This document shows, in pieces, positions 16,874 to 53,298 of a stretch of 64,000 nucleotides of DNA. The number at the start of each line of letters is the position of its first letter. The stretch's first letter is position 1. Both the position numbers and the translations under genes were made by a program. The stretch is from Heterodontus francisci (Eukaryota): contig NC_090399.1 in NCBI RefSeq assembly GCF_036365525.1, forward strand, positions 15,313,558 through 15,377,557, in the 5' to 3' direction. The notes below the pieces were generated by a model. It had not been told where the DNA came from. It made no database searches and saw only the letters and a program-made list of their open reading frames with translations.

Positions 16874-16934
16874 ATGGCGATAGAACGGTGGACAACAACC
16901 TCTGTTTTCCTTCTGATTTCAATCTTTCTAGCGG
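16874..16934 (+). CDS. NKp30/NCR3-like receptor, coding exon 1 (signal peptide MAIERWTTTSVFLLISIFLA)
   Basis: ATG in good context (CCAATGG), 20 codons with a hydrophobic core, phase-1 donor G|GTAAGT matching the V exon phase. An upstream ACTAAC branch point and CAG acceptor (16864) hint at a 5' non-coding exon. Confidence 0.8.
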
Positions 16935-17719
16935 GTAAGTGAATTGTCCCAATTTTATTGTTTAAATATTATAAGAAAACCATGATCATTAATCAGACTA
17001 AATGAATGATTGCAAGTATTTTTTTTTAAATACTAGAGATGCATGGCTTAACAAGTTCCTATATTGTCTATAGCGGTGGCATAAATCAATACCAGTTGCA
17101 ACATTAGTTTTAATGTTTTTGTAATTATCCCCAAATGAGTACATTTTGTAATGCTTTTAGGCACGAAAGTGATTAATTCACCATAGACGCATCTTCTTAA
17201 CGGCATTTCACTTGTTGTTCCTGCTTTTCCCCAAATGCCTGCTTTGCTTCGTTACCGATATGGAACTAGAGTAAACAATTGCTAGGCATGTTTGTTAGCA
17301 GGTTTGTTATTTCTGGAAATGAAGGAGTGCATCCAACGTAGTAACAGCAGGAGGAGACTGCCGGTTCATTTAGCCCAGCTAGCCATAATATTCCCTTAGT
17401 GCGTTTCTGATATTCCTGAATCTTAATTGTTGACAAGAAATTTATAGGTCTTCTTGAAACCTATTAAGTTTTCTTGTTCCACCACCTCTACGACTAACCA
17501 GTTCCACGTCTTTAGCACTCATAATAAATAACGTCCTCCCTCATTTCCTATTTTCTTCTGCTATTTTTAATTTGTAAATATGCTAAAATCCTGTAACTGA
17601 CAGACAAGCTTACTTGGGTTCGATTTGTCCAATTCTTTTATAATTTTAAATAGTTCCATCAGATCTTGTTCAGATATTCTTATCAAAAAATCCTAATATC
17701 ATCAATCTTTTTTCCAGAA

Positions 17720-18170
17720 ATTTGAAAAAAAAATACAAAAACAGTTCAAATTTTACATTTCTGAAAGTGCAATAGAGATCAGATTCCTTCGATACAGAGT
17801 GTCTCACAATTCTTGCCATTCCATTTTATATGCAAAGTACATTTGCATTACACAGCATAAACATTTTGGTGCATACAGCACTTTGGGTTTTACATAGGTT
17901 CCAGCCCCTCAGTATATTATGGCGGGAGAGCCTTACACAGTGGCCTTTCCCCATTGAGCCTTAGCGGCAGTTGCCCAAGCTTTAGTGCATCCCTCAGCAC
18001 GTAATCTTGGACCTTGGAATGTGCCAGTCTGTAGCACTCGGTCGTGGACAACTCTTTGCACTGGAAGACCAGCAAGTTTCAGGCAGACCAAAGTGCGCCT
18101 TTCACCCAGTTGATGGTCCTCCAGCAACAGTTGACGTTTATCTCGGTGTGCGTTCCTGGGAACAGCCCAA
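17720..18170 (-). mobile_element. Tx1-like LINE 3' end, nested in an old CR1 fragment (~17340-18320)
   Basis: ORF2 end AKAQWGKATV* plus a 3' UTR homologous to 54510-54775. Confidence 0.75.
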
Positions 18171-20213
18171 GATCATCAATATTTCCTCACAAGTCATTCC
18201 CTTAAGTTCAGGGGTCAACCATGCACCCCTTCTGTGTACCTCTTGAAATTACTGAAATAGCCTTTTTGATACAGTGAACAAAGACAGCACTCCGGATATG
18301 GTCTCACCAGGACTAAATATATCATTAAAATTATCACTCCAGATTTATTTAATTTACTTCTCGCAATGCAACCAAACAGATGCATACTTTACACAAATGA
18401 TTGATGTAAATGATTCCATTAACCACACACTACAGAGCCATACATTTCCTAATAATCTCTTAATCCAACCTTGAATTTAGCATCGAGATATGTTTTAACT
18501 CAGGATTTGCAGAGCACTACCGGTAATAATATCCCGTTATATCCAACTTCAGACGTCTGGTAGTAACAGTTCAAATCAACATTGGACTCCAAATGCGCTG
18601 GTATTTTTGGAATTAACATTCGGTGCCATTATGCAACTGTATTAATATATTTGCAAAATCAGCCAATACAATCACTGAATTACTTTGCCCAAAACATCTG
18701 CAGCCACATGTACCAAATTTAAGCATAATAACTATAACACTCTATTGTTGCTCCTGGAAGAATGGTTTTACTGGTGTTAGAAATATTGTGGACACATATT
18801 TCGGGTAGCGATCAGATTTATATGTCTTGCTTGTTAGTTGAATACTACTGTTCATAATATTTGCTCAATGATGCCACATACACCTGAAAATCTATCATTT
18901 CTATGCCTCAACCTTATTGAACTTAAATGAATAAATCATCCTCGGGAATTCGTGGAAAACTAATGATGAGGTTTTTTATGTATGAGATCATTACAATAAA
19001 TATATTTTACTCACATCCAATATATCTCAACATAGCTATATTTTGTTTTGAGGTGAGCAGCTAAAGGAAATAATCACGCCATTAAGTACGGTTGGGATAC
19101 GAGATAATAATCTTCACATCAAGGAAGTAAACGGGATTGATTTATTTATTGGCATGGTGTTAAAAAGTTGATCCTCGATTGAAGTCCGCAGTATGCAGAA
19201 AACCTGGTATAACATTAATGTTTACAAGAGCGAAGTGTGCATGGCTTCAATATTTGAACAGAGGTTCGAACAGGTTCACAAACTCATCATAATGACCATA
19301 TTTTCATTGACAAATTCTTTTTCTGATGGTTGTTTGGTAAATAAAACTCGATAATTATTGTCGAACAGGTCCCTTAATTAACACGGGTCAATGTTTTAAT
19401 TTCCATGAATTTAAGATATATACAGTGTTCTGTGATCTACTGCGCATCTTACAGCTTATTTTTGAATTTGGGCAACGAGCTAATATGGAATACCAGCATG
19501 CCCATCATATTCCGCCCCTATACATTCCTCCATATGGAAATCAGACACCTGTAGATTACTATGTAAGGATAAAAAGTGTATTGCATTGATCTGTTACTTG
19601 ATAATACTATTAATGAATCAATAAGGAATGCATCATTTACTTTCTTCCTCTCCATCTTTCTTTCGTTCCTTTGCATTCGTTTTTCTTTCTATCGTTCATT
19701 CTTTGTGTCTTTCTCTAGTTCTTTCTCTCCTCCTTTCTTTCTTTCTAGCATTCATATAATAATTTCCTTTGGAATTAATAATAGCATACTATGGAATTAA
19801 AACAACTCAAGCCATCTCAAAGCTCTTCGTGGCCAATGAATAAGAAGTGAACAGTAGTCTTTGTTGCTTTCTAGGACAACTCACCAATGACTTTGCTCAC
19901 AGCCCGGTTCTACAAACATCAATGAGATGAATAGCTCATAATATATTTTTGTGCTGTTTTCTGAAGGCTAAATTTTGACTACCGCACCGGGAGAACTTTC
20001 TCTACTTTGGAGGGGGCGGGGGGGGGGGGGGGGTGGGTGTGGGGTGAGGGTGAGAAACGCTCTCTCAGTTGCTGCATTAAAGTGTCAAATCCACGCTTAG
20101 AAGCAACAACCAGGCGATGCTGCGACAACTAAGCCAAATAGTTCTGGTTCACGGTGATGCATCAACCATTTACAGTGGCTAATTAATGCTTGTGTTTCTT
20201 TCTGCACCACTAG

Positions 20214-20540
20214 ATAACGAGGCTGCTACTTCCCAAATAATACAAAGGCCCATTTCAGTTCGTGTGTTCCAAGGTGATAGTGTGATTTTGAATTGCACCT
20301 TTCGTTTGGAAGGATTGGGCACCTACAGCTGGAGAAGAGATAATAGTGTCATAGACTTTGAATCTCCGAAATACAAGAAAAGAGTAATAAAAGCCGACTA
20401 TAATGCGTTCAAATTGAGACGAGATGCATCCATCCAAATTAATAATATGACAGAATGCGACTCTGGCATATATTACTGCGAGATTGATATAATGGGCAAG
20501 CAGAAGCTTGTCGGTAATGGAAGCTCGGTTATCGTACAGC
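20214..20540 (+). CDS. NKp30/NCR3-like receptor, exon 2: VJ-type IgV domain
   Basis: Acceptor CACTAG, donor C|GTAAGG, phase 1-1. IQRP..V..GDSVILNC...GTYSW...DASIQINNMTECDSGIYYCEIDIMG...GNGSSVIV has the canonical C-W-C, DxGxYxC and an in-exon J-like GxG. Resembles NKp30 (IYVCRVEVLG..GNGTRLVV). Confidence 0.95.
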
Positions 20541-20887
20541 GTAAGGAAACCTAACATTGTAACTTGAAAGCATTGTGATATTGTTTCCTGATTTAAACCT
20601 TCCCTTCATCCTTTCCTTCATGCTGTTGTTGTGCAGCTCTCCCTCTGTCTCCACCTCTGTCTTTCTGCCCACGGGCGGTGAATGTCTATTTCTGTCCCCC
20701 ACCACCCCCCCCCCACCCCGCCCCACCCCACTCCCCCATACCCCCCACACCCCCCCCCCCCCCCCCCCCACCTCCCACACCCTCATGTCTATCTTGTTTG
20801 TATTTCTTTGCGTTTCTCACTGTGTCCCTGTCTCTCTATCCATTTCTGGACTTATAAATAAATAACATTTTTTATTTCTTTTTGCAG

Positions 20888-21019
20888 ATTCTTGTGACAA
20901 ACCAAACCGTTCAAGTCTTCAGTTTGAGTGGTTGTGGATTGCAGTAGCAGGTGGTGTCACGTTGCTGGTTACTCTGCCACTCCTTGTTGTGATAATAGTC
21001 CTTGCTCAAAGAAACAAAG
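20888..21019 (+). CDS. NKp30/NCR3-like receptor, exon 3: stalk + transmembrane
   Basis: Acceptor TTTTTGCAG, donor G|GTATTT, phase 1-1. HSCDKPNRSSLQFEWLWIAVAGGVTLLVTLPLLVVIIVLAQRNK. Confidence 0.92.
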
Positions 21020-21204
21020 GTATTTTAAATACTAAAAGTGGTCGCCATGCTATGGAATCGTCAGAATTTCTATCTCATGCCTCAGAATGACAAAAAAAAT
21101 TATAATACAATGCAATTTTCTTTTTTGCAATTTTGTGGTTAACTTTTAACACATTTTTCATTTTGCGATGAATTAGAGTCTATATGATCCGGATGATTTT
21201 TACA

Positions 21205-21725
21205 CTTGGAGTATGTAAGCAGTTCTGGTCTCCACATTATTTAAACAAAAGATATAGAGGCGCTGGAGAAAGGGCAAAAAAGATTTGCTAAGATGATACC
21301 AAAACAGAGATGCCTGTCAGGAAAGATTGAAGAGACAGGAGCTCTTTTTTGTAGTAAAGAGAAGACTGAGGGGTGGCACGATCTTTATGATTATGTAGAC
21401 TTAAAGAAGGTATTTCCATTTACGAGAAAGACCAGAACTAGGAGCCAAGAATATAAAATCGTCAGTAATAAACTCAAGAGTGAATTCAGTAGAAACCTCT
21501 TTACCCGGAGAGTGGTTAGAATGTCGAACTATTACCACAAAGCGTAGTTGAGGTGACTAGAATAGATACATTTAAGGGGAAGTTAGGTAAGCAAATGGGG
21601 GAGAAAGTAATCGAAAAACATATTGATGAGGTTAGATGAAAAAGGGTTCGAGGAGGCCGGTGTGGAGGACAAACAACGGCCTTGACCTGTTGAGTCGAAC
21701 AACCTGTTTCTATGCTGTAACTACT
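21205..21725 (+). mobile_element. CR1 3' fragment (intronic)
   Basis: FWSPH..KDIEALE, RNLFTRRVVRM and a CR1 tail. Confidence 0.8.
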
Positions 21726-22088
21726 CCGCAACTTTTCAAAGGCACCTTTCATTTTTCAGGGAATTAAGGATAACAATTACGCTTGTCTTGATAATATGAC
21801 TTGTCATCCACTTCCCAAATATAGGGAAAGTTAATGTAAATCGGGAGACATTAAAAACAGTAAACGAAAATATATTAGGAACACCAAATATTGTTATTAA
21901 AATCCTAATGTTAAGTCACAATTTATATGAATAAACACATTTAAAGTAATTGCACTTCAGCGGATATACAAGTACATTTAGAGGATCTTCATAATTTTGA
22001 GATATGATGTTATTGAAGTGCTGCTTTAATCGACAATATCAACAACAATATTAACCACAACTATATTTCACCATTTTCTTATTCACAG

Positions 22089-22107
22089 CTTATGCGTTGC
22101 TTGTCAG
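22089..22107 (+). CDS. NKp30/NCR3-like receptor, exon 4 (19-nt micro-exon, AYALLV)
   Basis: Acceptor TTCACAG, donor AG|GTGAGT. Phase 1-2 fits both neighbours. Confidence 0.8.
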
Positions 22108-22223
22108 GTGAGTCAATCAATAGTTTCCTTGTAATCATGGAATGATTTATTCTAAAAGATTGTACACGACAAAAAAAATTACAGTCAGGTAACACTTTTG
22201 CTAAACATCTTCTTGTTTTGCAG

Positions 22224-22258
22224 AGAATGTTCTTCTTTCGATTCTGCAAAAGAACCAG
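22224..22258 (+). CDS. NKp30/NCR3-like receptor, exon 5 (35 nt, RECSSFDSAKEP)
   Basis: Acceptor GTTTTGCAG, donor CAG|GTAAGT, phase 2-1. Confidence 0.8.
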
Positions 22259-23779
22259 GTAAGTGATTCATATCTTTATTTTGCTCACTCGAGAGACTGT
22301 GGGCTGCTTGCATTACGATGAAGAATTCGTGGATGTGGTGTGTGTGCGCTGGCATTGTTTCAATTTAACAGCTTCTGATGCCTCTGGGTTAGAAAGCTCC
22401 AGCGTAAATGGAACCTGCTATTATTTGAAAAACTAAAGTTTTGTATGCATAATTTTATGCAAATATAAACCCATCTTGGACCACCAATTGTCATTCGTAA
22501 GAGAGGTATTCATGTGCTACAAATTTCTCCTTCCTCGGAGCAGCAAGAAATATTCATGACGTCCTTTAAATCTGAAAAGAAATAACTCTCCACACGGGTT
22601 CGAATTTAATCAGATATCAACTAAATTTTTGAAACTTTAAGAAGCTGTTTTTCAATGATTGGTCCCCTGAAAAGATTCAATAGCAATGCTTTGTTTCACC
22701 ATATCAGTCACTGAGGAAAAGTAGACGTATTTCGGAGATTTTCTTTCATGATCAGTTATGGCGTTAGATTTCAAAAGTCTTTAGTTCTCGTAAACACAGT
22801 CCCTCCAATTGCCATAAAATACCAAGTTATTTTAAGATGTCAGTCTCACTCGAACTCGCTTCGAATTTTCCTCAGCATAGTTGTAACTATTTGGAGCCAT
22901 CCAGCACAACAACAGATTCAAACGTACCCACTAAAGAAATTTTAAAACTGAAAATGTTTGAATTGTACCTTTGTATTTTTCCAAAGCTGTGTTTACCTTT
23001 TACAGACAAAAAGCTGTGCATTTGAGAAGTGGTATAGTATAAATTACAGTCAAAATAAATCTGTACTGCACGCCTTTAACTCAAAAGATTACAACCAAAC
23101 AGTTCTTAGGAAAGCACAGAGGTTTTCTTAAATCTCTCATTCCTTTGCGGGAACAAACTTTAGTTAAAAAGAGCATGCAGTAATTGTAACAACAACATTC
23201 ACGCTCTCATAACAACTCCAGATATCTTAAACACATTCAGTCATTCAAATCTTATTTCCTCTCACCCACTTTAAAATGTGAATTCCTTGTTATGGTCTGA
23301 TCAACTTAAAATTTCCAAATTCTATGCACAATCCCAGCCGTACGCACAAGGATGTCAACATGGGTTAAATAGGAGCAATAGAACATAAGGATTATGAGCA
23401 GGAGTGGACCATACGGCTTCTCGAGCCTGTTCCACTATTCAGTGCAATCATTGACGATCTTCCACCTCAATTCCACTTTCCCTTTAAATAATTAGCATTT
23501 TGTAGGTGCCAGCCGCAAAAAAAAAAACCAGCATTCATAATTTGTTAATTTGATCAGTCTCTCTAACCCTTGGCCTGCCGCGTTAGGAAGCTGTCAGTTG
23601 CAATTGAACCAGTATGACCCATAATCATCCATTCATTGTCAATGCGTCATCTCAATCTGAGCGTTCTCTTCGAATGGATCATTTACTCTATTTTCACTTA
23701 TCTGGTTGCAAAAGTGAACCACCTGGCATAATAAATGCCTCGCAACTCTTAAGTTCCTCTTTTTCTGATTTTCTTTCTT

Positions 23780-24460
23780 CTTTCTTTTGGGCCTCCTTAT
23801 CTCGAGAGACAATGGATAAGCGCCTGGAGGTGGTCAGTGGTGTGTGAAGCAGCGCCTGGAGTGGCTTAAAGGCCAATTCTAGAGCGACAGGCTCTTCCAC
23901 AGGTGCTGCAGAGAAATTTGTTTGTCGGGGCAGTTGCACAGTTGGCTCTCCCCTTGCACCTCTGTCTTTTTTCCTGCCAACTACTTAGTCTCTTCGATTC
24001 GCCACATTTTAGCCCTGTCTTTATGGCTGCCCGCCAGCTCTGGCGAACGCTGGCAACTGACTCCCACGACTTGTGATCAATGTCACAGGATTTCATGTCG
24101 CGTTTGCAGACGTCTTTAAAGCGGAGACGTGGACGGCCGGTGGGTCTGATACCAGTGGTGAGCTCGCTGTACAATGTGTCTTTGGGGATCCTGCCATCTT
24201 CCATGCGGCTCACATGGCCAAGCTATCTCAAGCGCCGCTGACTCAGTAGTGTGTACAAGCTGGGGATGTTGGCCGCCTCGAGGACTTCTGTGTTGGAGAT
24301 ACGGTCCTGCCACCTGATGCCAAGTATTCTCCAGAGGCAGCGAAGATGGAATGAATTGAGACGTCGCTCTTGGCTGGCATACGTTGTCCAGGCCTCGCTG
24401 CCATAGAGCAAGGTACTGAGGACACAGGCCTGATACACTCGGACTTTTGTGTTCCGTGTC
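23780..24460 (-). mobile_element. RTE-clade LINE 3' fragment (intronic)
   Basis: YQACVLSTLLYGSEAWT...FHLRCLWRILGIRWQDRISNTEVL, RIPKDTLYSEL..G.RPTGRP, C-terminal CxxC. Confidence 0.92.
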
Positions 24461-24834
24461 AGTGATTTCTGATTTACCAACCCCTTTTCATGGGTCATCA
24501 CCGTCACCTGCGACTTGTCTCTTTTGAACATTACGGTGGCCAACAGCTCACTAACTGCTCTGTCAATTAGTTTCTTTTGAAGGGTTTCCCTGACAGTCAC
24601 CATGGTTAATTCAACGATTGGAGACAGTACCCCCAACGGTTTCCTAACCAATTGAAATTCGGTTTTGTACAAGTCTAGACTGTCATAAGTACTTGGTATC
24701 ACAAAAACAAGATTACTGCTAGTCAGATCCTTCCCCGTTCGTCAATTGCAAGACAGGTTGACTCTGACAAACTAAATGTGATGGCAACATCATACTGTTA
24801 TTGTGATCGACCAAATCGAGACACTTGTGATGTA

Positions 24835-25625
24835 GGAACATAGGAACAGGAGTAGGCAATTCAACTCTTCAAGCCTGTCCCGCCATTCAATGAGATCGTG
24901 GATGATCCACAGCCTAACTCCATATACCTGCCTTTGGCCCATATCCTTTAATATCTTTGCTTAACAAAAATCTATCTATCTCAGATTTAAAATTAACAAC
25001 TGTTCTAGCTTCAACTACTGTTTGTGGGAGAGAGTTCCAAAGCTCTACCACCCTTTGCTTGAAGAAGTACTTCCTAACATCTCTCCTGAATGGTCTGGTC
25101 CTAATTTTTAGACTATGCCCCCTAGTTTTAGAATCTCCAACCAGTGGAAATAGTTTATCTTTATCTAGCCTGTCTTTTCCTGTTAATATCTTGAAGACTT
25201 CAATCAGATCATCCTTAACCTTCTAAATTCGAGCGAAAACAGGCCTAATTTGTGTAATCTCTCCTCATAACTTAACCCCTGTAGTCCATGTATCATTCTT
25301 GTCAAGCTACGTTGTACTCCCTCCAAGGCCAATATATCCTTGCTGAGGTGTGGTGCCCAGAACTGCTCACAGTACTCCAAGTGGGGTCTAACCTGGGTTT
25401 TGTACAGCTGCAGCATAACCTCTGTGTCTTTATACTCCAACCCTCTAGATGTAAGGGCTAGCATTCCATTAGCTTTATTGGTTATTTTCTGCACTTGCTC
25501 GTGGCATTTTAAAGATCTATGCACCTGAACCCCCAATTCTCCTTGGACATCCACTGTACTTAACCTCTTCCCATTTAGAAAGTATCATGCTCTATCCTTT
25601 TTTTGGTCCCAAATGGATAACCTCA
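24835..25625 (-). mobile_element. CR1 3' fragment (intronic)
   Basis: ORF 25204-25554 [13 protein letters not shown]...GLFSLEFRRLR. Confidence 0.92.
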
Positions 25626-25989
25626 AGTCTTTAACTAGTAGGCATGCAGAGAAATAAACAATATTAGTCCTTTTTTCTCTGGGTGGAGACGTAAACTTCA
25701 TGAATTATTTTGATCTTGACCGGCTCTATAAACTGTTGAGAAAGCTCAAAATCTTTATAGGTCTCTAGTCAGACACAGTCTTTGCTAATTCATTACAGCA
25801 TGACAATTGCAATTGTGAAGAAGATCCTCAGAAATGAGAGAGTCCCTACAAAAGACTAGATGCCAGCTTGTTCATCATCCTGGCTTATTGTCCCACTTCC
25901 TATCTCAAGACTGTCTTGGCTATCTACTTTAACAATGTGGCAACAAAAAGAATAAAGCAAAATAGCAATAATTAGTTTGTAAAGTTAAA

Positions 25990-26630
25990 GTATGGAAGGG
26001 CAGCTTGGCCGAGTGGAATGTGCCTCCTGTGGTATGTGAGAACTTGTAAACGCACCATGTGTCCTTGATAAACACATCTGCAGGAAGTGTCACCGCATCT
26101 GCAAGGCAGAGAACTACGTGGATAGTACGTTTAGGGAAGTGGCCTCACCACAAGTTAAAAATGTGCAGACAGAAAAGGAATGGGTGGCTGCTAGACAGTG
26201 TAAGAGAACCAGGCAGGTAGTGCAGGAGTCCCCTGAGTCCATCACGCTTGCTAACCAATATCCATTTTGAATACTGGTGAGGGCAATGGTTCCTCAGAGG
26301 AGTGCACCAGAGCCAAGTCTGTGGCACCACGGGTGGCTCAGCTGCACAGGAGAGAAGGAAGAAGAGTGGAAGGACAATAGTGATAGGGGATTCATTAGTT
26401 AGAGGAACAGACAGGCGTTTCTAAGGCCGCAGACGTGACACCAGCATGGTATGTTGCCTCCCCGGTGCCTGGGTCAAGGATGTCACAGAGCGGCTGCAGG
26501 ATATTCTTCTGGAGGAGGGTGAACAGCCAGAGGTCGTGGTCCACATTGGTACCAACGACATGGGTAAGAAGAGGGATTAGCTCCTGAAAGCAGACTTTAA
26601 GGAGTTAGGAAAGAAGTTAAAAAGCAGACA
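25990..26630 (+). mobile_element. CR1 ORF1 (SGNH esterase-like) fragment
   Basis: IVIGDSLVRG, CCLPGA.VKDV, VVVHIGTND. Confidence 0.88.
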
Positions 26631-26787
26631 GCATAACTGAAATGTTACCTGCCAGAAACTTGTCTATAAATGCACCCCAAGGAAAGATTTCGAGAATGGA
26701 GTTATTAATCACCCAAAAAAATCAGAATTTTTAAAGGACTTTTCCGAAACAGTCCATTAACTGTATTCCTGTTTTCCCCCCAAATAG

Positions 26788-26831
26788 AGTTGTCAAACAG
26801 AAACAAAGCGCAAAATCATGCCACACACCAG
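26788..26831 (+). CDS. NKp30/NCR3-like receptor, exon 6 (44 nt, ELSNRNKAQNHATHQ)
   Basis: Pyrimidine tract plus ATAG acceptor, donor CAG|GTAAAT, phase 1-0, open frame. Confidence 0.7.
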
Positions 26832-27544
26832 GTAAATGCACGTTTGTCTATGTAGTTGCATGAGTTGTGTTTGTAACGTGTAAAACTATTGCATAGGCAC
26901 GTTTTTGTGTCATTGTATTGATTACATGAAAATGCTTATCAAAAAATGCGTCATGCAATGCCTTTGGAATAACGATGATTTGAAATGCAGAAATATCTGA
27001 ACAACATGTGATAAAGCAAAATGCCGATACATGTTTTTAATTGAAGTAAAAGGAAGAACATGCGAGAAACACAAAGGAAATTGAACCCGAAAGCAATTTC
27101 AGGTGGTTCACCTCTCTAACTCTTCCAAATTTCCAGTCGTCATGTCTTTTCTTTGAATTTCTACATTTTTATCTATTCTGAGCTTTCATGATGGGTCTGT
27201 ACTTCAGACAAAGGGGGCAATGTTAACTTTGAATGGGTAATAGCGAATGTTATAACTCGTTATACACCTCGTCCGATTGTCTTTTCAATTCGAAACAACA
27301 CTCTGAATATTTCACTATTTTGAGACATGATTTTCATAATTTCAGCAAAAGCTTCTGTGTACGAAAATCGAAAAGGTCACTGTTGAATCATGCGTGTTTT
27401 TTTTAATGTATATAGACAGATAAGTTAAGTGGAACAATGTGACCTACAATCTCCAGCAGCCAAGGCTTCACAACTTATTTCATCATCTTACTTTTAACCA
27501 CAAGATGTAATTATATAGCTCCTTTCATGTAAACCTGCCAGTAC

Positions 27545-27945
27545 GGGTGGTGGTGCGAGGCCGTGGGGGAGTTGAAAATGAAGATGAGAAATTTAAAATT
27601 CGAGGCGTAGCTGTACCGGAATCCAAATTACGTCAGTGAACACAGGGATGATGGGTGGATGGAACTTGGTTCGAATTAGGATATGGGCAGCAGAGTTTTG
27701 GATGAGCCCAGGTTTCCAAAGGGTGCAAGGCGGGAGGCTGACCAGGAGAACATTGGAATAGTGGAGTCTTGAGTTAACAAATGCATGGATGAGGGTTTCA
27801 GCAGCAGAGAGGCTGAGGTGGGGGCGGATATTGGAAATGTGATTCAGGTGAAAGTAGGAGGTCTTGGTGATGCTGAAGAGATATGGCCAGAAGCTTAACT
27901 CAGGGGAAAATAGGTTACTAAGATGGTGAACAGCCTGGTTCAGCC
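27545..27945 (-). mobile_element. L2 LINE RT C-terminal fragment
   Basis: YFHLNHISNIRPHLS..AETLIHAFVNSRL.Y.N...IQNSAA. Confidence 0.85.
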
Positions 27946-28460
27946 ACATAGAATGTACAACACAGCAACAAACTGTTCAGCCCAACTAGTCTATGCCGGT
28001 GTTAATGATCCATCGGAGCCATACTGCTCATCTATCAGCATAACATTTAATTTCTTTCTCTGTCATTTACTTATCTAGATTTCCCTTAAATGTACCTGCG
28101 ATATTCGCTTCAAATCTGTATGTGGTAATTCTATGTTCTTCCACTCTCTCGGTATAGACGTTTCTCCTGAATTCCTATTTATTAACAACTATTTTGCATT
28201 TATAGTTCCTAATAGTAGACGCCCCACAAATGGAAACATCTTCCTACATCTCCCCTATCGAATTCTTTCATAATTTAAAGCTCTGTTAGGTTACCTCTCA
28301 GCCTTCTGTTTTTCAGCAAAAAAGAGCCCCAGCCTGATCGGTCTTTCCTGATAGTCAAAACCTTTCATTTCTGATATCATCCTCGTAATTCTTTGCAATA
28401 TTTTCTCCAGTGCTTCTATTTCATTTTTGCAATATGCAGACCAGACCCGTGCACCAAATG
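27945..28460 (-). mobile_element. old CR1 3' fragment
   Basis: Degenerate CR1 3' region, similar to the reverse complement of 21205-21725. Confidence 0.65.
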
Positions 28461-29898
28461 GGCGCTTTTAAACCACCATGAAGTGTACGTTAACCTGGTA
28501 ACATCCATAGGTGTATGTAGATTGAGTTTAACTGCCGTGCTGCTCTTGTTACGTGACTCCGCTGTGAAAGCTTTTGCTGTTAAACTGAAAATTTCTAATT
28601 GTTCACAATTGTAATGGACTATCGAGAGAACTTTCAGAAACCCCGCTATTTTATCGCGTCCTAAACATTCCCCAGGCAGTCTGAAATTAAAAACAAACTA
28701 AAAATAAAAATGTCGAAAATCACGACAGGTAGCAAAATTGAAAACTAAGTTTAAAAAGTTAATAGCATTGATACTGAAAAGTGTCAGCAAAAAGATTTAT
28801 TTCAGCCTTTCATCCCACAGTCTTTGCAACTGTTCTACAATGGAGACGAATAGACGTCCATTGCTAAGCGATTTTCATCCGTCTTAGATGGCAAATAGTG
28901 CGGTACCTTATTTCGATTAATTTCACTTTTTTGATGCAGTTCCCCAAAGTTCTCCTATGAAAACTCTTTAAGTTGGACTAAAATGGCAAGAAAAAGTTTG
29001 AGCAGCGCATGAATCAGTGATCCCACCAGAAGACTTCCCGTCCATTTTGTGGCCTTAGCTCGCAAATTGGGCACTAAATCCTGTCCCAAAATACGGAATA
29101 ACGCTTCTAGAGACAGCGGTGTGTTTCTTAATCTGACCCATTAATTGTATGGGGTTTGCTTCGCGACCATGGATGATACACGCATTAGCATGTTGAGCAG
29201 TGACTTCTTTTTGGTTGAATAGCAGCTGATCGACAGTGTGGGCTTAAGCTGGAATCGCTAGTTTTATGTTTGGCAATGCACAGAGGGTAAATCCCAGTGG
29301 AGAGAATTTTGCTTTTCAAAGTGCACAGGAAGTTGTTTGGAGATCTTTGGCACGTTCTTCCCAAGATAGCGAGGCCTTATCTAAATGTTTTCGAAATAAG
29401 GATTGTTCCTCGGAGCTTTCTACATAGAGAAACTCTGTGCACGGATATGGCTGAGACCTGTAAATACAGTGTAATTGTATCTCGGCAATGTAACCTAGCA
29501 TTACGTTAATATGAATCTTTTTTTTCTGCCTGATGTCGCTCCAGTGTGAAGCCTTTTTCCTCATTTTATTCATACTAACACCGTTCCTATGAACTTAAGC
29601 GTCTTCTTTAACTCCATATTTGTTCTACGCCTACTCTCGACGTCCTCGCTCTACAAACATCCATGGGCACCGTCCCCATGGCAACTCATGTGTCAAAAAA
29701 ACTGTTAAAATTCTACGCTTGCCTTACAAAAGACTAACTTTGCACAGCATAATTTCAGGCTGGTACACCTTAAGACTGCTTCTGAAAGGACGCAATAGTT
29801 ACGACAAAGCTCTTGCTGTATAAAATTAAATGGGTGAAAAAACGTTTTCTTTATATCGTGGTGCTAACCAATGTAATGTTTGTGTCCTTGCTTCAAAG

Positions 29899-29985
29899 CA
29901 TGAAGATGCTTACCTTCACTGTCACGTTAATGAACCCAAGGCCAAGAAAAAACGTCCACTACCGGCAAGAAGGAACATGCAGTAG
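29899..29985 (+). CDS. NKp30/NCR3-like receptor, terminal exon 7 (HEDAYLHCHVNEPKAKKKRPLPARRNMQ*)
   Basis: Branch-like GCTAAC and a pyrimidine tract before an AAG acceptor; phase 0 matches exon 6. Followed by AT-rich sequence with AATAAA at 30302 and 31742. Confidence 0.65.
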   Translation, partial: HEDAYLHCHVNEPKAKKKRPLPARRNMQ

Positions 29986-34979: not shown

Positions 34980-35019
34980 GTAAATACGCATCATAATGAG
35001 AACAGTGATTAATAACTTT

Positions 35020-38000: not shown

Positions 38001-38306
38001 GGCTTGCTAGGCCATTTCAGAGGGCATGTAAGAGTTAAGCACATTGCTGTGGGTCTGGAGTCACATGTAGGCCAGACCAGGTAAGGACAGCAGATTTCCT
38101 TCCCTGAAGGACATTAGTGGACCAGATGGGTTTTTACAACATTCGACAATGGTTTCATGGCCATCATTAGACTAGTTTTAATTCCAGATTTATTAATTCA
38201 AATTCCACATTCTGCTGTGGAGGGATTCAAACCCATGTCCCCAGAGGAATACCCTGGGTCTCTGGGTTATTAGTCCAGTGATAATACCACTACGCCACCG
38301 ACTACC
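35020..38306 (-). mobile_element. near full-length LINE family B: tRNA-like head + 5' UTR + single APE-RT ORF (disrupted)
   Basis: ORF pieces 37994-36681 (APE: NIWGL, ILMESYL, GDFN, LDLVLTN, SDH), 36446-36066 (PISLL, QFGFR, LDIKAAFD) and 36054-35068 (GVPQG, LADD). Box A at 38297-38286 and box B at 38233-38223. Confidence 0.9.
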
Positions 38307-38472
38307 CTCCCTTAGTGCAAATTAAAAAGTGCAGAGAACAATCTAAAATAATGTGCATGTATTCTAGTACACTTCAGATCATCTATTTCAGAACATCTAT
38401 TTCAGAACGATACTCAGCCTTTTCAGAACCTCCAAATTTCCAACTCGAAGGACATTTATGCCTTTAGATATA

Positions 38473-41400: not shown

Positions 41401-42790
41401 TGCTCCCTTCCTGCTCTTTCCCTTAGTCACGCAGACTTCATTATCTAGTTCCTTACAGGCTTTAGTTACTACCTCCTTACTGTCTACTGACCTCCTCATT
41501 TTGTTCCCATCCCCCTGCCACATTAGTTTAAATCCTCCCCAACAGCGTTGGCAAAAGCACCCCCAAGGACATTGGTTCCAGTCCGGCCCAGGTGTAGACC
41601 GTCCAATTTGTAATAGTCCCACCTCCCCCAGAACCGGTCCCAATGTCCCAAAAATCTGAACCCCTCCCTCCTGCACCATCTCTCAAGCCACGCATTCATC
41701 CTGACTATTCTTTCATTTCTACTCTGACTATCACGTGGCACTGGTAGCAATCCTGAGATTACTACCTCTGAGGTCCTACTTTTTAACTTGGCTCCTAACT
41801 CCCTAAATTCTGCTTGTAGGACCTCATCCCGTTTTTTACCTATATCATTGGTGCCTATGTGCACAACGACAACTGGCTGTTCACCCTCCCCCTTCAGAAT
41901 GTTCTGCAGCCGATCTGAGACATCCCTGACCGGTGCTCCTGGGAGGCAACATACCATTTGGGAGTCTCGTTTTCGACCACAGAACCGCCTATATACTCCC
42001 CTTACAATCGAATCCCCTATCACTATAGCCCTTCCACTCTTTTTCCCGCCCTTCAGAACAGCAGAGCCAGCCACGGTGCCATGAACCTGGCTACTGCTGC
42101 CTTCCCCTGGTGAGCCATCTCCCTCAACAGTATCCAAAACGGTATACCTGTTTTGGAGGGAGATGACCGCAGGGGACACCTGCGCTGCCTTCCTGCTCTT
42201 TCTCTGCCTTTTGGTCACCCATTCCCTTTCTCCCTCAGCAATCCTAATCTGCGGTGTGACCAATTCGCTAAACGTGCTATCCACGACGTCCTCAGCATCG
42301 CGGATGCTCCAAAGAGAGTCCATCCGCAGCTCCAGAGCCGTCATGTGGTCTAACAAGAGCTGCAGCTGGACACACTTCCTGCACGTGAAGGAGTCAGGGA
42401 CATCAGCCGTGTCCCTGAGCTCCCACATTGAGCAAGATGAGCAGAACACGGGTCTGAGATCTCCTGCCATTTTTAATCTTAAGCTTAACTTAGATAAATG
42501 AAAAAGGGACGACAAGTGTTTACCAATCTCACGATAAAAAAAAAGAGAAATAGAAAAAGCCTTACCTTATCTACACACCACCGAGTCCTTTTTTTTGGTT
42601 AGAGGAGGACGGCGGGTGGGAGACACTACAGGTGTAGTGTCTCGGGTTCAGAAGCAGCCCAAATATATAGGTTTTTACTTACCCAGCAGCCCCCTGGTCC
42701 GCCGAAAACAAAAGGAAAATTAAGTTTAAGTTGAAACTGACCTTCCCAGCTGATCACTCGCTCAGCACTCTCTGCTTCCGAATAAGCTGC
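38473..42790 (-). mobile_element. near full-length young CR1 LINE (ORF1 zinc finger + SGNH esterase; ORF2 APE-RT, lightly disrupted)
   Basis: ORF1 ATG 42470 to stop 41523 is intact (CxxC...CxxC, GDS, GTND, DGLH). ORF2 starts at an overlapping TAATG (41523) and runs in pieces to 38566. (GTTCTTT)n tail. Confidence 0.97.
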
Positions 42791-42794
42791 TCCA

Positions 42795-44090: not shown

Positions 44091-44616
44091 TAGCCATGGT
44101 GGATAATCAGAGCCTCTTTGGAATCAGTGTGACTCTAGCAGGACAAGCCTGGCGATGGGAAGCTGGGTTGACCCTTTGTGACAGACATGGAAAACCAATC
44201 AGCCCGTATGTAACACAGAATAAAGAGGCCATTCGGCCGGTCGTGATGGTGTCGGAGCTTTGAAAGAGTTATCCAGTTAGTGTCACCATCTGCACTTTTC
44301 CCCAAAGCCCTGAAAATTTGTCCTTTTCAAGTATAAATTCAATTGCCTTTTGAAAGTTATCATTTAATCCGCTTCCACCATTCTACATTTCTGATCATTA
44401 CAAATCGCTAAGGTTATTTATCATGTCGCTTCTGGTCATTTTGCCAATTACATTAAATCGGCAGTCCTTTGGTTACCAACTCCCCTGCCACTTGAAATAG
44501 TGTATCTACTTTCAAGATTTTGAACGCCTAATCAAATCGTCCCTAATCCTTCTTTGTTCTAAGTAGAACAATTCAAGGTTTTCTACCGGCTCCATGTAAC
44601 TGAAGTCTTTCATTTC

Positions 44617-45128
44617 TGATGGAATACTCTCCACTTGCCTGGATGGGTGCAGCTCCAACAACACTCAAGAAGCTCGACACCATCCAGGACAAAGCAGCCC
44701 GCTTGATTGGCACCCCATCTACAAACATTCACTCCCTCTACCACCGACACACAGTGGCAGCAGTGTGTACCATCTACAAGATGCACTGCAGCAATGCACC
44801 AAGGCTCCTCAGACAGCACCTTCCAAACCCGCGACTTCTACCAACTAGAAGTACAAGGGCACAAAATATATGGGAACACCACCACCTGCAAGTTCCCTCC
44901 AAGTCACACACAATCCTTACTTGAAACTATATCGGCGTTCCTTCACTGTCGCTGGGTCAAAATCCTGGAACTCCCTTCCTAACAGCACTGTGGGTGTACC
45001 TACCCCACATGGACTGCAGCAGTTCAAGAAGGCAGCTTACCATCACCTTCTCAAGGGCAATTAGGGATGGTCAATAAATGCTGGCCTGGTCAGCGATGCC
45101 CACATCCCATGAATGAATTAAAAGAAAA
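44617..45128 (+). mobile_element. LINE family B 3' fragment
   Basis: MEYSPLAWMGAAPTTLKKLDTIQ...HHLLKGN* plus tail. Confidence 0.92.
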
Positions 45129-48100
45129 GTCAGGAGGTGAGTTATTCACCGTAGAATTCCCAGCACCTGTCCTGTTCTTGTAGCCAAAATACTGATGTAA
45201 AAGCTGCAGGTCAGGTTTCATTCAATAATGACCCCCACAGGATATTGATAGTGGGGGATTCAGCAATGGTATTGCCATTGAATGTCCAGGGGGGATGGTT
45301 AGGTTCTCTTTTCTTAAAGATGGTCATTGCCTGGCAGTTTCGCAGCTCGATTGTAACTTACCACTTAGTAACCCAAGCCTGAATGTTTTCCAGGTCTTTC
45401 TGCATCTGGACATGAACTGCTTCAGTATCTGAGCAGTTGTGAACGGCACTGGACATTGTATAATCATCAGAGGACATCCCCAGTTCTGACATTATGATGG
45501 AGGGAAGATCAATGATGAAGCAGCTTAAGATGGTTGGGCCTAGGATACCACCCTGAGGAACTCCTGCAATGATGTCCTGGGGCTGAGAATATTGGCATCC
45601 AACAACCACAACCATATTCCTTTGTGCTAAGTATGACTCTGACCAGCAGAGGGTTTTCCCCCGATTCAAATTAACTCCAGTTTTGCTGGGGCCATACTCG
45701 GTCAAATGCTGCCTTGATATCACTCTCACCTCACCTCTGGATTTCATCTCTTTTTTCCATGTTTGGACCAAGGCTGTAATGAGGTCAGGGGCAGAACTCA
45801 AACTGAGCAGCAGTGAACAAGTTATTGTTGAGCAAGTGCCGGTAGATAGCACTGTCGATGACACCTTCCATCGCTATGCTGATGATTGAGAGTAGACTGA
45901 TGGGGCAGTAATTGGCCAGAATGGATTTGTCCTGCTTTTTGTGGAAAGGACATACCTGGGCAATTTTCCACATTGTCGAGTAGATGCCAGTGTAGTAGCT
46001 GTACTGGATCAGCTTGGCTATGGTGCAGCTAGTCCTGGAGAACAAGTCTTCAGTACTACAGCCAGGTTGTTGTCAGGGCCCATAGACTTTGCAGTATCCA
46101 GTGCCTTCAGCTGTTTCTTGATATCACATGGAGTGAATCGAATTGGCTGAAGACTGCCATCTGGGGGACCTCAGGAGGAGGCCGAGTTCGATCATCCACT
46201 CAGCACTTCTGGTTGAAGGCAGTCACAAATGCTTCAGCCTTTTGTTTGCACCAATGTGCTGGGCTCATTATTATTGAGGTTGGGGATATTTGTGGAGGAT
46301 CCTCCTCCAATTGGTTGTTTAATTGCCCACCACCATCCGTGACTGGACGTGGCAGGACAGGAGAGCTTTGATCTGATCTGTTGATTGTGGGATCACTTAG
46401 CCCTGTCTATTGCATTCTGCTTCCACTGTTTGGCGTGCAAGTAGTCCTGTGTTGTGCTTCAGCATGTTGGTACCTCATTTTTAGGTGTGCCTGGTGCTGC
46501 TCCTGACATGCCCTCCTGTACTCACTTGTCTCGATGACAGTGGTAAAGATTGCAGTTTGTAAATTGCACACACTAATCCCACTGTGCGTCGGTGGTGGAG
46601 GAGGTGACGTTTCAGGTGGTGGATGGGGTGCCTATCGAGCAGACTGCTTTGCCCTGGACCGTGTCGAGCTTCCTGAGTGTTGTTGGAGTCGCAATCATCC
46701 AGGCAAGTGGAGAATATTCCATCACACTTGTGCCTTGTAGTTGGTGGACAGGCTTTGGCGAGTCAGGAGGTGAGTTACTCGTTGCAGAATTCCCGTCTCT
46801 TTCTTGCTCTTGCAGGCACAGAATTTATATGCCTGGTCCAGTTAAGTTTCTGGTCAATGGTAACCGCCAGGATGTTGATAGTGGGAGATTCGGCGATGAT
46901 AATGCCGTTGAATATCAAGGGAGATAGTGAGATTCTATCTTATTGGAGACAGGTCATTGCCTGGCACTTGTGTGGTGAAAATGTTACTTGCCACTTATCA
47001 GGCCAAGCCTGAATGTTTTCCAGGTCTTGCTGCATGCACACACGGACTGCTTCAGTATCAGAGCATTTGCAAATCGCACTGTGCAATCATCAGTGAACAT
47101 CCCCACTTCCGACCTTATGATGGAGGGAATATCATTGATGAAGATAGTTGGGCCTAGGGCATTACCCTGAGGAACTGCTGAAGCGATGTTGTGGGGCTGA
47201 GATGATTGGCCTCCAACAACCACAATCATCTCCCTTTGTGCTTGGTAAGAATCCAACCAATGGAGAATTTTACGCCGAATCCCACTGACTTCAATTTTTC
47301 TAGGCCTACTTAATGTGATATTTGGTTAAATTCTGTCTTGATATCAATGGCTGTCACTTTCACCTCACCTCTGGCATTCAGCTCTTTCATCCATGTTGGA
47401 CCAAGGGTGTTATGGCCCATGGAACTGAGTGCCCAAATGGAGCGTCAGTGAGCAGGTCATTGCTGTGTAAGTGCAGCTTGATAGCACTGTCAGAAACATC
47501 TTTCATCACTTAACTGATGATTGCGAGTAGACTGGGCTGTAATTGGTTGGTCTGGACTTGCTCTGCATTTTGTGGACAAGTCATACCTGGATAATTCTCC
47601 ATATTGTCGTGTAGGTGTCTGTGTTGTAGCTGTGCGGGAACAGCTTGGTGAAGGGCGCAATTAGTTTTGGAGCATAAGTCTTCAGTGCTACAGCTGGAAT
47701 GTTATCAGATTCCACAGCCTTTGTTGTATCCAGTCATTTCTTGATTACTATTGGAGTGAAAGAATTATCTGAAAACTGGCATCTATGATAGTGGGGACCT
47801 CAGGAGGAGGCCGTGATGGATCATCCAAATAGCACTTTTGGCTGAAGATGGTTGAAAATGATTCAGCCATGTCTTTTGAACTGTCCTACTGGGATCCCCG
47901 GTCATTGAGGATCGCAAAACTTATGAAGACTCCTTCTCCCGTTAGTTATATTATTGCCCACCAACATTCATGACTGGATGTGGCAGGACTGCAGAGCATT
48001 GATCTGATCCATTGGTTGTGGGATTGCTTTGCTCTGTATATAGCATGTTGCTTCCACTCCTTATCATGCATGACGTCTTGTGTTGTAGCTTCACCATGTT

Positions 48101-49518
48101 GGCACCTCTGTTTTAGGTATGCCTGGTGCTGCTCCTCGCATGCTCTCCTACATACCTCATTGAACTAGGGTTCGTCCTTTGGTAATGCTAGAGTGAGGGA
48201 TATGTTGGGTTGTGAGGGTACTGATTGTGGTTGAATGTAATTCTGCTGCTGCTGATGGCCCACAGCACCTCATGGATGCCTAATTTTGAACTGCTAGATT
48301 TGGTCTGAGTGTATTCGATTTAGCATGAGGGTCATGCCACACCAACTCTGGATGGAGTCCTCATGTGAAGATGGGATTTCATCTCCACAAGGCCTGTGAG
48401 GTGGTCACTCCAAAATTACTATCATGGACATAGACATCTGCGACAGCTAGATTGGTGAGGACGAGGTGAAGCATATGTTTCCCTCTTTTCTGGTTTAATC
48501 ACCACCTGCTTCAGGCCCAGTCTGGCAAATACTCGGTCAGCTCAGTCAGTAGTATTACTACTGAGGCACAGTGGGGTTTGGTGAAAACGCATCTGGAAAT
48601 CTGGAATACTGTGCTCAATTTTGGTCTCCATAGTTAAGAAAGGATATAGCTGCATTGGAGGTGGCATAGTGAAGGTTCATTAAATTGGTGCCTGGAATGA
48701 GGGGGTTGTTTATAATGAGAGGCTAAGTAAATTGCATTTATCTTTTCTGGAGTTTAGAAGAATGAGAGGTGATCTCATTGAAACATGCAAGATTGTGAAG
48801 GGGCTGGACAGGGTAGACACTTCGAGATTGTTTCCACTGGTTGGGAATCTAAAACACAGGGGGTACAGTCTCAGGATAAGGGGCTGATCATTTAGGACTG
48901 AGCGAGGAGAAATTACTTCACTCTATGGGTTGTGAATATTTGGAATTCTCTACCCCAGAGGGTTGTGGATGCTCCATCGTTGAATACTTTTGAGGCTGGG
49001 ATAGACGGATTTTTGGTCTCTCAGGGAATCAAGGGATATGTGAGTGGGCGGGAAAGTGAGGCTAAAGCCTAAGACCTGCCATGATTATATTGAATGGCGG
49101 AGTTGACTCGATGGGCCATATGATCTACTCCTGCTCCTATTCGTTGTGTTCTTGTATGATGGACATTGAAGTCCACATCCAGAGTATATTTTGTGCCTTT
49201 GCTATCCTCAGTGCTTGTTCTAAGTGGTGTTCAACATAGAGGAGCACTGATTCATCAGCTGTGGGAGAGCAGTAGGTGGCAATCAGCAGTAGATTTCTAT
49301 GCCCGTGTTTGATCTGATGCCATGAATCAATGTGGAGGAATACCAGGGTAACTCCCTCCTGACTGTATGTCACCATTCCGCCACCTCTGGTAGATCTGTC
49401 CTGCTGGTGGGACAGGACATACCCAGCAATGATGATGGAGGAGTCTGGGACATTGTCTGTAAGGTATAATTCGGTGAGCATGAATATGTCAGTCTGTTGC
49501 CTGACTGGTGTGGGACAG
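45129..49518 (-). mobile_element. two tandem older LINE family B copies (~45129-46525 and ~46540-49518)
   Basis: Repeated RT (GVPQG, MFTDD) and APE (LTELYLTDNVPD) segments. The second copy is split by a CR1 insertion. Confidence 0.88.
48570..49140 (+). mobile_element. CR1 3' fragment nested in LINE family B
   Basis: LEYCAQFWSP, EFRRMRGDLIE, IWNSLP and tail. Confidence 0.85.
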
Positions 49519-49519
49519 C

Positions 49520-49651
49520 AGTGCCGATAACTGCAATAGTTTCCCTTTTAACATTATCGAATAAATTTTCAGAAAATGTCGACATGACGGTGCAGAATGA
49601 AGACATGCTAAGTATGCTCAGACAGTTAGACATAAAAATCTTGACAAGGTT
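49520..49651 (-). pseudogene. candidate decayed Ig C1 exon (5' part), truncated by a LINE
   Basis: Strong acceptor TTTTTCGCTGTTGCAG (ends 49652), then (E)P / LVKIF...SSFCTVMSTFSENL, resembling P-x-V-x-I-F...C-x-V-x-x-F. Lies 0.7 kb downstream of the VJ relic. Confidence 0.4.
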
Positions 49652-50349
49652 CTGCAACAGCGAAAAACGGGCAAGATATAAAGAGAATTTAAGCGATAGG
49701 CGAACAGTAGAAAGATTGCTTCACCATATGACACAGTTGATAGACATAAGTTAGAATCATTTGAAGCTGGAAATAGTTTATGATTGACGTGCCCAGTGTT
49801 TTATATCATTAATTTGCCTATCAACCCGAAGAGGTCAACACTAAATTTTGACGAGGAGTCCAACAATCAGTTAAGGGGGAAATGGAAAGGGGGAGTCCTG
49901 TTAAGTCTCGCCCAATTGGCGACAAAGGTAATGCAATATCACAATAAATACAAGTAATTAAAATGGAAGTATTGCACCAATATAGGTAAAATATGGCAAA
50001 TGGAACAGTAGTATCGCGACTAACAACGGAATTTAGTGGTTCATGTTAAAATAAGATATTCAAACATTGCGTTAAAAGTAAGCAAACTGTATCTCGAGTT
50101 TAAATACAATACTACTCCATTTTGTTTAGGATTTTTTTTCTCTTACTCTTCAAACATACTTTTAGCAGCTGAACCCGACCACATAAGTAAACCATAATCT
50201 TCACCTAGATCGATGTGAGATTACGTTGCCCTCAATCTGCACAAATTCAAACTACTGACTGATGGTTGAATAAACTTCGAACGACTGAAACCAGCCTTTT
50301 AATGCACTTCAGCCATATTCACAATGAATTTCGGCAATGAATGTGACTG

Positions 50350-50839
50350 TGAGGACATCGCAACCGAGTCTCGTGTTGCCAAATATCCACACGAGGACTT
50401 TTGTGTCCAGTTGTCACCAAACCTGATTGGGAGAGGGACTGATAGTTGGCATTTGCCATCCTTATCCCGAAACACTAAGAAAATTGCCACTTCCCCATTG
50501 AGATCCAGAGTAAGCAGACTAGAAATCCAATCTAGTGCACAACTCTCCTGCTTTACATTCACCGGACATTGTACGCCCTACCCAGTACACATTTCCAATG
50601 ACTTCAAACGGGCCTGATCTAAAGTTGACATTGAAACCGTCAGCTTTTCCCTTCGCGTGAAATGTTGTCCTGAACAGGAGTGTACACTAAGCGAAAATAA
50701 TTTTAACTTTAATGTCGTAATCTGAATCAGAAGGAAGTCTCTCAGTAGTCCGTTTACACCTCATCTTATTTTATCTTTCAGTGAAATCATTCGCTTTTAC
50801 CCGTTTCTTGACCAGGAATAAATGCTAAAATGACCCCAT
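50350..50839 (-). pseudogene. decayed leader + germline-joined VJ Ig exon
   Basis: Leader relic M/GVILAFIP (50839-50813), ~126-bp intron, acceptor TTTTCGCTTAG (50687). Then in order across frames: VHS, VQDNISREGKS*RFQCQL (Cys 50630-28), NVYW (Trp 50584-82), KQESCALDWIS, FLVFRDKDGKCQLSV, VWIFGNTRL (50392-50366). Confidence 0.65.
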
Positions 50840-51249
50840 GTCAGTTTTGTGCCTGGCCGGCAAATTGAAAATATATGGGAATGAAATCCAACTCTGGTGA
50901 GGTCAGAAAACGAGCGGCAGTGTTTAGATTAAGGCGTCAAGTAGATGTCCACTTTTGAACTCAGTAAGGAGGAAAATGAAGCTGGGTATCTAAAGGTCTG
51001 CTGATCCCATAGCGTGTGTTTCACGACCCCAGCCGAAGTTGAATGTTATCGGGGGGGGGGGGGGGAAGTTTTAACTTTGGACGATTGTGTTATTTTAATG
51101 ATAGCGAATAAGCTGATCATTGTGCACCACTCCCAATTTAAGTGAATGGAATGAAAATTCAGCCGGATGCATAATAATTGATCAATTCTATATCATCCAT
51201 TTTGCACTATTGCCCAAAGCTAAGAGTCAGTGGCCCGAATTTTGCATTA

Positions 51250-52780
51250 GCTATGGGGCCTGACAACATTCCGGCAATAGTACTGTAGACCTGTGCTCCA
51301 GAACTTGCCACACCCCTAGCTGAGCTGTTCCAGTACAGCTATAACACTGGCATCTGCCCAGCAATATGGAAAATTGCCCAGACAAAAAGCAGGTCAAATC
51401 CAACCCAGCCAATTACCGCCCTATCAGTCTACTCTCGATCATCAGTAAAGTGATGGAAGGGGTAATCAACAGTGAAATCAAGTTGCGTTTGCTCGGCAAT
51501 AACCTGCTCACTGGCACTCAGTTTGTGTTCCACCAGGGCCACTCAGCTCCTGACCTCATTACATACAGCCGTGGTTCAAACATGGGAAAAAGAGCTGAGC
51601 TCCAAAGTGAGGTGAGAGTGACGACTCTTGACATCGAGGCAGCATTTGACTGAGTGTGGCATCAAGCAGCCCTAGAAAAATGGAATTAATGGGAATCAAG
51701 GGGCAACTCTCCGCTGGCTTGTGTCCTTTATAGTGCAAAGTAAAATGGATGTGATTGCTGGAGATCAATCAACTAAGTCCCAGGATTTCACTGCAGGAGT
51801 TCCTTAGGGTAATGTCCTCGGCGCAAATATCCTCAGCTGCTTCATCCATGACCTTCCCTCCATCAAAAGGTCAGACGTGGGGATGTTCGTTGGTGATTGC
51901 ACAATGATCAACACCATTCACGACTCCTCAGATACTGAAGCAGCCCATGTCAAGATGCAGAAAGACCTGGAAAACATTCAGACATTGCCTGATAAGTGGC
52001 AAGTAACTTTTGCACCACAAAAGTGCCAGGCAATGACACCTCAAACAAGAATGAATCTCACCATCTCCCCTTGACGTTGAATGGCATTACCACTGCTGAA
52101 TCGCCCACTATCAACATCCTGAGGGTCACCATTGACCCAGAAACTGAACTGGACCAGCCGCATAAAAGCTGTGGCGTCAAGAGTAGTTCAGAGGCTGGGA
52201 AATCTGCGGCGAGTAACTCATCTCCTGTCTCCCCAATGCCTGCCCACCATCTACAAGGCACAAGTCAGGGGTGTGATGGAATACTCTCCACTTGCCTGGA
52301 TGGGTGCAGCTCCGACAACACTCAAGAAGCTCGACACCATCTAGGACAAAGCAAACCACTTGATTAGCATTCCATCCACCACCATAAACATTCACTCCCT
52401 CCACCAACAACACACAGTCGCAGCAGTGTGTACCATCTACAAGATGCACTGCAGTAATGTACCAAGGCTACTCAGGCAGCACCTTCCAAACCCGCGATCT
52501 CTACCACCTCGAAAAACAAGGGCAGCAGATGCATGGGAACGCCACCTCATGAAAGTTCTCCTCCAAGCCACACACCATCCTGACTTGTCTTCCTTCACTG
52601 TCACTGGGTCAAAATTCTGGAACTCCCTTCTTAACAGCACTTTGGGTGTACCTACCCCACATGGACTGCAGCGATTCGAGAAAGCAGTTCACCACCACCT
52701 TCTCAAGGGCAATTAGGGATGGGCAATAAATGCCGGCCTGGCCAGCGACACCCACATCCATGAAACGAATTTTAAAAAGT
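51250..52780 (+). mobile_element. LINE family B RT/3' fragment
   Basis: NPANYRPISLLSIISKVME, LDIEAAFD, HHHLLKGN* plus tail. Confidence 0.92.
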
Positions 52781-53298
52781 GCAAAACGTAGGTTCTTCTG
52801 GGATTGAAGCGCCCTCACTAGCTGAAAGACAGCAATGCAGCTGTGTGCAGGTGGTAATATGAAGACTCATAATACAGGACATTAAAAGATGTGTTACTTT
52901 AATGATATTATTTCTTTCTTCAATGGGTATCTAAGACTTCAGTCATATCCCGATTCAGGTATAGCATGTAAACGAAAGAGATGTGACTTAGATTGTGTGA
53001 TACAACCATACATCATGTCAGAGAGTGCACAATTGATCCTGTCATGAACCCATAATGCCTATCTTTTATGAGTTTATTTCTATCCCGAGCTCCATGATCT
53101 TTTCTTTAATGAAGGTTTTTATAATTTTACCCATAATGGATGTCAACTCCCATGATTTGTAGTTTCGTTGGGTCACTTTCGTTGCCATTAAAAGGAAATA
53201 TCATTAGCATTTTCAGTTCACCCATGTCCAGGAACATATTTTATATCGGCAAGAGTATTTTTAGGCTATAGACCAGTAGATAAAGCCAGCTAGATTAC

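Follow-up and report, generated by a model that had tools for sequence, protein, structure and literature searches.

On the minus strand of a 64,000-nucleotide stretch of horn shark (Heterodontus francisci) DNA, referred to here as the window, we find what is probably a real and ordinary pseudogene. In our judgement there is an even chance that it is a long-decayed joined-VJ pseudogene and a dead paralogue of the MHC-linked NCR3/NKp30 cluster, a reading that follows from its position beside an NCR3-like gene and from its NKp30-like motifs. Its membership of the NCR3 family is not firm, and we infer the family, the nature of its third exon and the location in the MHC. An earlier note on this DNA had described a dead single-exon VJ gene of the immunoglobulin superfamily, with a split leader and without an RSS, from a cartilaginous fish, and this description is supported by our analysis. 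The more striking part of that first reading, a UrIg-like VJ-C1 gene, is unsupported.

The remnant begins with a piece of a leader exon (50813..50839, minus strand) that retains a hydrophobic end, VILAFIP (50834-50814), and a donor in phase 1. The leader is split by a GT-AG intron of 126 nt in phase 1 (50687..50812, minus strand; GT at 50812, AG at 50687), the donor of which, GTCAAG, is weak. The leader end is not in frame with the ATG at 50839. The sequence VHS, previously taken as the continuation of the leader, is out of frame with the REGKS that follows, and the phase-1 join gives VYT straight into REGKS. The decayed VJ exon (50360..50686, minus strand) is recognized by motif order and V-domain spacing, and all the motifs that the earlier note had listed on the minus strand are in place and in order. 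REGKS*RFQCQL (50657-50622) holds the B-strand Cys at 50630, and IGNVYW (50599-50582) holds the C-strand Trp at 50584. They are followed by KQESCALDWI (50553-50524), in which ALDWI is C'-like, by FLVFRDKDGKCQLSV (50481-50437), in which F..RD..C.L is D/E-like, and by VWIFGNTRL (50392-50366), which is J-like when read as WIFGN-TRL with a one-codon gap in the G strand. A TGA at 50416 lies 12 codons ahead of the Gly in FG and would occupy the position of the F-strand Cys. No 3' donor of the VJ exon was identified, and neither a strict nor a lax scan revealed an RSS between V and J (the best lax site had 6 mismatches in 16). An intron of about 0.7 kb (49652..50359, minus strand) with a pyrimidine-rich acceptor would lead to a candidate exon 3 (49520..49651, minus strand), either a stalk-transmembrane exon or the start of a C1 exon, neither of which is significant. 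The acceptor ending at 49652 is one of four such sites in 1.7 kb.

The remnant encodes no protein now: it carries stops and, because the motifs are spread over three frames, at least three frame switches. One DNA contig from the same sample spans all of it and differs by a single 1-nt gap, without any substitution, and the lesions are thus probably real and no assembly error, although this contig is not independent, as the window may have been built from its run. The contig has one base fewer in a run of C at position 51051, upstream of the leader. None of three runs guessed to be RNA gave a contig over the remnant exons, which has no bearing on expression either way.

The interval 49520-51242 occurs only once in the window, with LINEs on either flank. 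On the 3' side lies a 5'-truncated LINE with a nested repeat (46551..49519, minus strand; 76-77% identical to the best-kept copy in the window), the first of a stack of LINEs that reaches down to about 44300. It starts at about 49519, 132 nt past the acceptor, and is there 77% identical to the copy at 37453-37836; the divergence of about 23% from its best-kept relative suggests an old insertion. Upstream of the leader is a LINE fragment (51243..52778, plus strand) that is 83% identical to the same reference copy. More broadly, 44300-52800 is densely filled with LINE fragments of either orientation, which share 76-93% identity with the copy at 35000-38480; self-repeats make up 43% of the window. 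Positions 1-2870 on the minus strand belong to a different retroelement, in which a zinc-knuckle-like ORF and the beginning of an endonuclease-like ORF can be read and into which a short repeat intrudes at about 2110-2460.

Whether the V exon amounts to more than chance has a mixed answer: chains of V-domain motifs that were tuned separate it from shuffled sequence, and untuned chains do not. The successful chains were adjusted after the sequence had been seen, in that a one-codon gap in the G strand was allowed and blocks were shortened, and their significance is overstated because of this post hoc tuning and because the generic motifs were taken as general background. With these adjustments, a generic antigen-receptor chain scores 87 on the VJ exon, the top site in the window, compared with 80 on the intact NCR3 gene nearby; this score is reached by 0 of 500 local and 0 of 60 whole-window shuffles (maximum 79), and in a four-block form by 1 of 10 window shuffles. 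A four-block chain derived from NCR3 scores 66, second to the intact gene, and is reached by none of 1000 local and none of 20 window shuffles (maximum 57). Its three-block form also ranks second in the window behind the intact gene (0 of 1000 local shuffles); when three blocks are scored without gaps, 6 of 20 window shuffles attain the score. The six-block form is weak, with 21 of 1000 local shuffles reaching a score that lies below those of all 20 window shuffles. Two different tuned chains converge on one set of Cys, Trp and G strand, spaced as in a V domain. Untuned rigid V-set chains rank the intact NCR3 exon first and do not separate the remnant from shuffles (287 of 500 and 71 of 500), and the 92-codon open frame is at chance level (220 of 2000 shuffles).

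Sequence searches identified no relative of the remnant. Pfam found no Ig family in any of the six frames of the exon. Single frames searched against the PDB gave 0, 1 (unrelated) and 0 matches, none of them spanning the V domain, and NKp30 is absent from the 60 matches listed of 62 for the IGNVYW frame. Single frames against a set of 5.8 billion sequences left 0 of 14 candidates at an E value of 10, while a set of 1.84 billion returned 15 matches, all of them long proteins aligned over several stretches. The ESM Atlas yielded no usable match for one frame, which was not the IGNVYW frame; none of 509 and none of 8 candidates from metagenome contigs was confirmed; and plasmids and phages contained no match for the NCR3 domain. 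In the part of the literature covered by our search, no paper on the remnant's locus was found. One frame resembled the CDR3-J ends of antibody heavy chains (best E 0.003, PDB), a match that we rejected because it would leave only about 29 codons between the C-strand Trp and the G strand. MAFFT alignments of the remnant frames were meaningless and were discarded.

The simplest source of a VJ exon, overlooked in the first reading, is an intact NCR3/NKp30-like VJ gene with seven exons (16874..29985, plus strand), already annotated in the horn shark. It lies tail to tail with the remnant, whose 5' end is 21 kb from the stop of the intact gene. Its exons encode the leader (16874-16934), the VJ domain (20214-20540), the stalk and transmembrane segment (20888-21019) and, in four short exons, the cytoplasmic part. 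The V domain is 99% identical to the Heterodontus francisci NCR3-like protein XP_067865603.1, and relatives at 63-69% identity were found in five other shark clusters (6 matches among 43 candidates), one of which includes a nurse-shark protein named NCR3. Searched with the family profile of this gene, the PDB returned human NKp30 as the top 4 of 106 matches (best E 4e-10). In several sharks the orthologues go under the names 'myelin protein zero-like 1' or 'uncharacterized'. A catshark gene model, GCB69712.1 (P0034), is extended at its N-terminus by a part that contains a hydrophobic stretch and a tyrosine motif resembling an ITIM. This part has no match in the window and is probably a paralogue from upstream that gene calling joined to the model.

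The white-shark relative of the intact gene sits on a contig of 115,848,844 bases, and the last gene listed for the white-shark MHC chromosome 19 ends at 115,613,256 in the covered part of PMC10751288. Together with the gene lists this makes it likely, as an inference, that the horn-shark locus is the NCR3 cluster of MHC class III. The same part of that source gives five NCR3-labelled genes in the white shark, oriented +,+,-,-,+ between AIF1 and DDAH2, three NCR3-like genes in the AIF1-DDAH2 interval of the sawfish, and a second NCR3 site near C4 in the catshark. It also contains, for both white shark and catshark, a tail-to-tail pair with a gap of 21-24 kb in which at least one gene is labelled NCR3. 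The layout of the horn-shark pair matches these and may reflect orthology of the pair, although the second catshark site near C4 tempers this as well as the placement in the MHC cluster.

The remnant shares several features with the NCR3/NKp30 family, in which V and J strands likewise lie in one exon without an RSS. Human NKp30 has IGSVTW and GNGTRL where the remnant has IGNVYW and GN-TRL, and 16 codons from Cys to Trp compared with about 15 in the remnant. The distance from the TGA to the Gly, 12 codons, equals that from Cys to Gly in the neighbouring NCR3-like gene, and a Cys is found at codon 3 both in candidate exon 3 and in the stalk-transmembrane exon of the neighbour. Differences from the neighbour are also apparent: from the Trp, the remnant has 56 codons to the putative Cys position and 68 to the Gly, against 49 and 61, and its leader intron is far shorter than the 3.3 kb of the neighbour. 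ALDWI, F..RD, the Phe before the Gly and the short leader intron look antigen-receptor-like. Direct comparison with the neighbour's subtype gave no signal with a frameshift-tolerant profile (249 of 300 shuffles reach the score), with hhalign (which returned a very low match probability) or at the DNA level (239 of 1000 shuffles), nor do the two leaders resemble each other as DNA (403 of 1000). This family comparison rested on one shark subtype only; nurse-shark NCR3 genes MT914154-914161 are cited in the covered part of PMC12227049.

As a member of the NCR3 cluster, the living gene would have been built like its neighbour, with a single VJ domain that does not rearrange behind the leader, then a short stalk carrying a Cys, a transmembrane helix and a tail for signalling. 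In this it would resemble the MHC-linked VJ genes without rearrangement that are already known. Its likely origin is a tandem duplication with inversion, after which stops, frameshifts and deletions would have accumulated and LINEs would have filled the DNA on either side.

A different origin, which we regard as possible but doubtful, is a dead non-rearranging antigen-receptor-like VJ-C1 gene of the PRARP/VJC1 type (and not UrIg) beside NCR3 in the MHC, with exon 3 as the 5' half of C1. PRARP/VJC1 genes, reportedly described by Fu et al. in 2019 and Ohta et al. in 2019, are said to be non-rearranging. The remnant has in common with them a joined VJ exon, a J-like FG motif, a split leader and MHC association, and the reading stays alive because of the long V domain, the antigen-receptor-like C', D and J motifs and the short leader intron; the motif set that captures these was, however, tuned on a sequence already seen. 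NKp30 and PRARP are both named as VJ genes in the MHC in the covered part of PMC10751288.

Candidate exon 3 bears most directly on this alternative. It has an open frame of 44 codons with VKIF and a Cys, which would suit C1, but the acceptor that the earlier note had placed 0.7 kb on does not open a C1-like start that can be told from chance: C1 chains are reached by 271 of 500, 187 of 1000 and 23 of 1000 shuffles, the last with blocks shaped on that note's own AYLACL. The conserved FYP-type proline of C1 is absent from exon 3. A LINE was also thought to have cut a C1 exon in two; no 3' half of C1 is present beyond the LINE stack, and no C1 exon is found downstream of the remnant down to position 30000. 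The one candidate, YTCSVSH at 42636-42616, with a score of 44 that 1 of 30 shuffles attains, was rejected as a chance match because it sits between the tail of one LINE and ORF1 of the next and coincides with a hairpin. The latter LINE (38475-42793, minus strand) is near full-length with two ORFs, and the hairpin in its 5' region (42620-42643) happens to translate as YTCSVSH. As a stalk-transmembrane exon, exon 3 fares no better: it has no transmembrane signal (607 of 1000 shuffles, compared with 0 of 1000 for the neighbour's real transmembrane exon), and its DNA likeness to that exon is reached by 493 of 1000 shuffles.

We consider it unlikely that the remnant represents a third, non-rearranging lineage next to NKp30 in the MHC of sharks, a TCR-like VJ-C1 gene of the PRARP type apart from both NCR3 and UrIg; intact orthologues of such a gene might then hide among NCR3-labelled or uncharacterised genes of other sharks.

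An immunoglobulin light-chain (IgL) or TCR orphon, joined in the germline, moved into the MHC and then decayed, would account for the J-like WIFG, the split leader and the lack of an RSS. Shark IgL-lambda is wholly germline-joined according to the covered part of PMC12227049. Both it and the remnant have V and J joined in the germline and a WIFG-type J. Ig clusters are, however, multicopy, whereas the remnant is a single copy without an Ig cluster around it: the 64 kb contain neither a further Ig or TCR exon nor a good RSS, and one DNA run gave no paralogue of at least 80% identity across the exons, bearing in mind that contigs prove presence and not absence. The C exon is unsupported, and the antigen-receptor genes described in the covered part of PMC12227049 map to another region. 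In view of the missing close paralogue and the missing Ig or TCR cluster, we find such an origin improbable.

That the motifs came to stand in this order by chance, in unique non-coding DNA that never held a gene, seems to us similarly improbable. The lack of a Pfam Ig match in six frames, of relatives in database searches and of significance for the untuned chains would all be expected of such DNA. On the other hand, the two tuned chains that agree on Cys, Trp and G strand beat all window shuffles, the splice sites and the hydrophobic leader end lie where expected, and the remnant is the window's top site for the antigen-receptor chain.

Another VJ-transmembrane receptor (CD8-like, of the CD28 family or similar) or a copy of UrIg is very improbable: the long C-C' loop and the F..RD strand presumably recall CD8 beta, but CD8 maps outside the MHC. 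UrIg, to which the earlier note had likened the remnant, is MHC-linked, and UrIg/UrIg2 and the remnant have in common their occurrence in elasmobranchs, a single VJ exon and a split leader. We exclude UrIg/UrIg2, since the V-domain motifs differ and the run of at least three C1 exons is lacking. A chain of UrIg/UrIg2 blocks taken from fig. S2 of PMC12227049, to which the remnant also shows no fit by eye, is reached by 83 of 500 shuffles and scores below every window shuffle, and the CxCG/GCG motifs of UrIg G strands given in the covered part of that source are absent from the remnant. UrIg also occupies another place in the MHC, about 6.3 Mb from the NCR3 genes in the white shark (covered part of PMC10751288).

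As a dead paralogue of the NCR3 cluster, the remnant would be an ordinary instance of the birth and death of genes in a receptor cluster that evolves fast, and would be useful only for annotation of the horn-shark MHC. Within the literature covered, UrIg is the only gene in the shark MHC described as VJ-C1. If instead a syntenic VJ-C1 gene were present in other sharks, it would be a further candidate relative of the exon that was split by the RAG transposon, and this would matter because the ancestor of Ig and TCR is sought above all among the non-rearranging VJ-C1 genes of the MHC.
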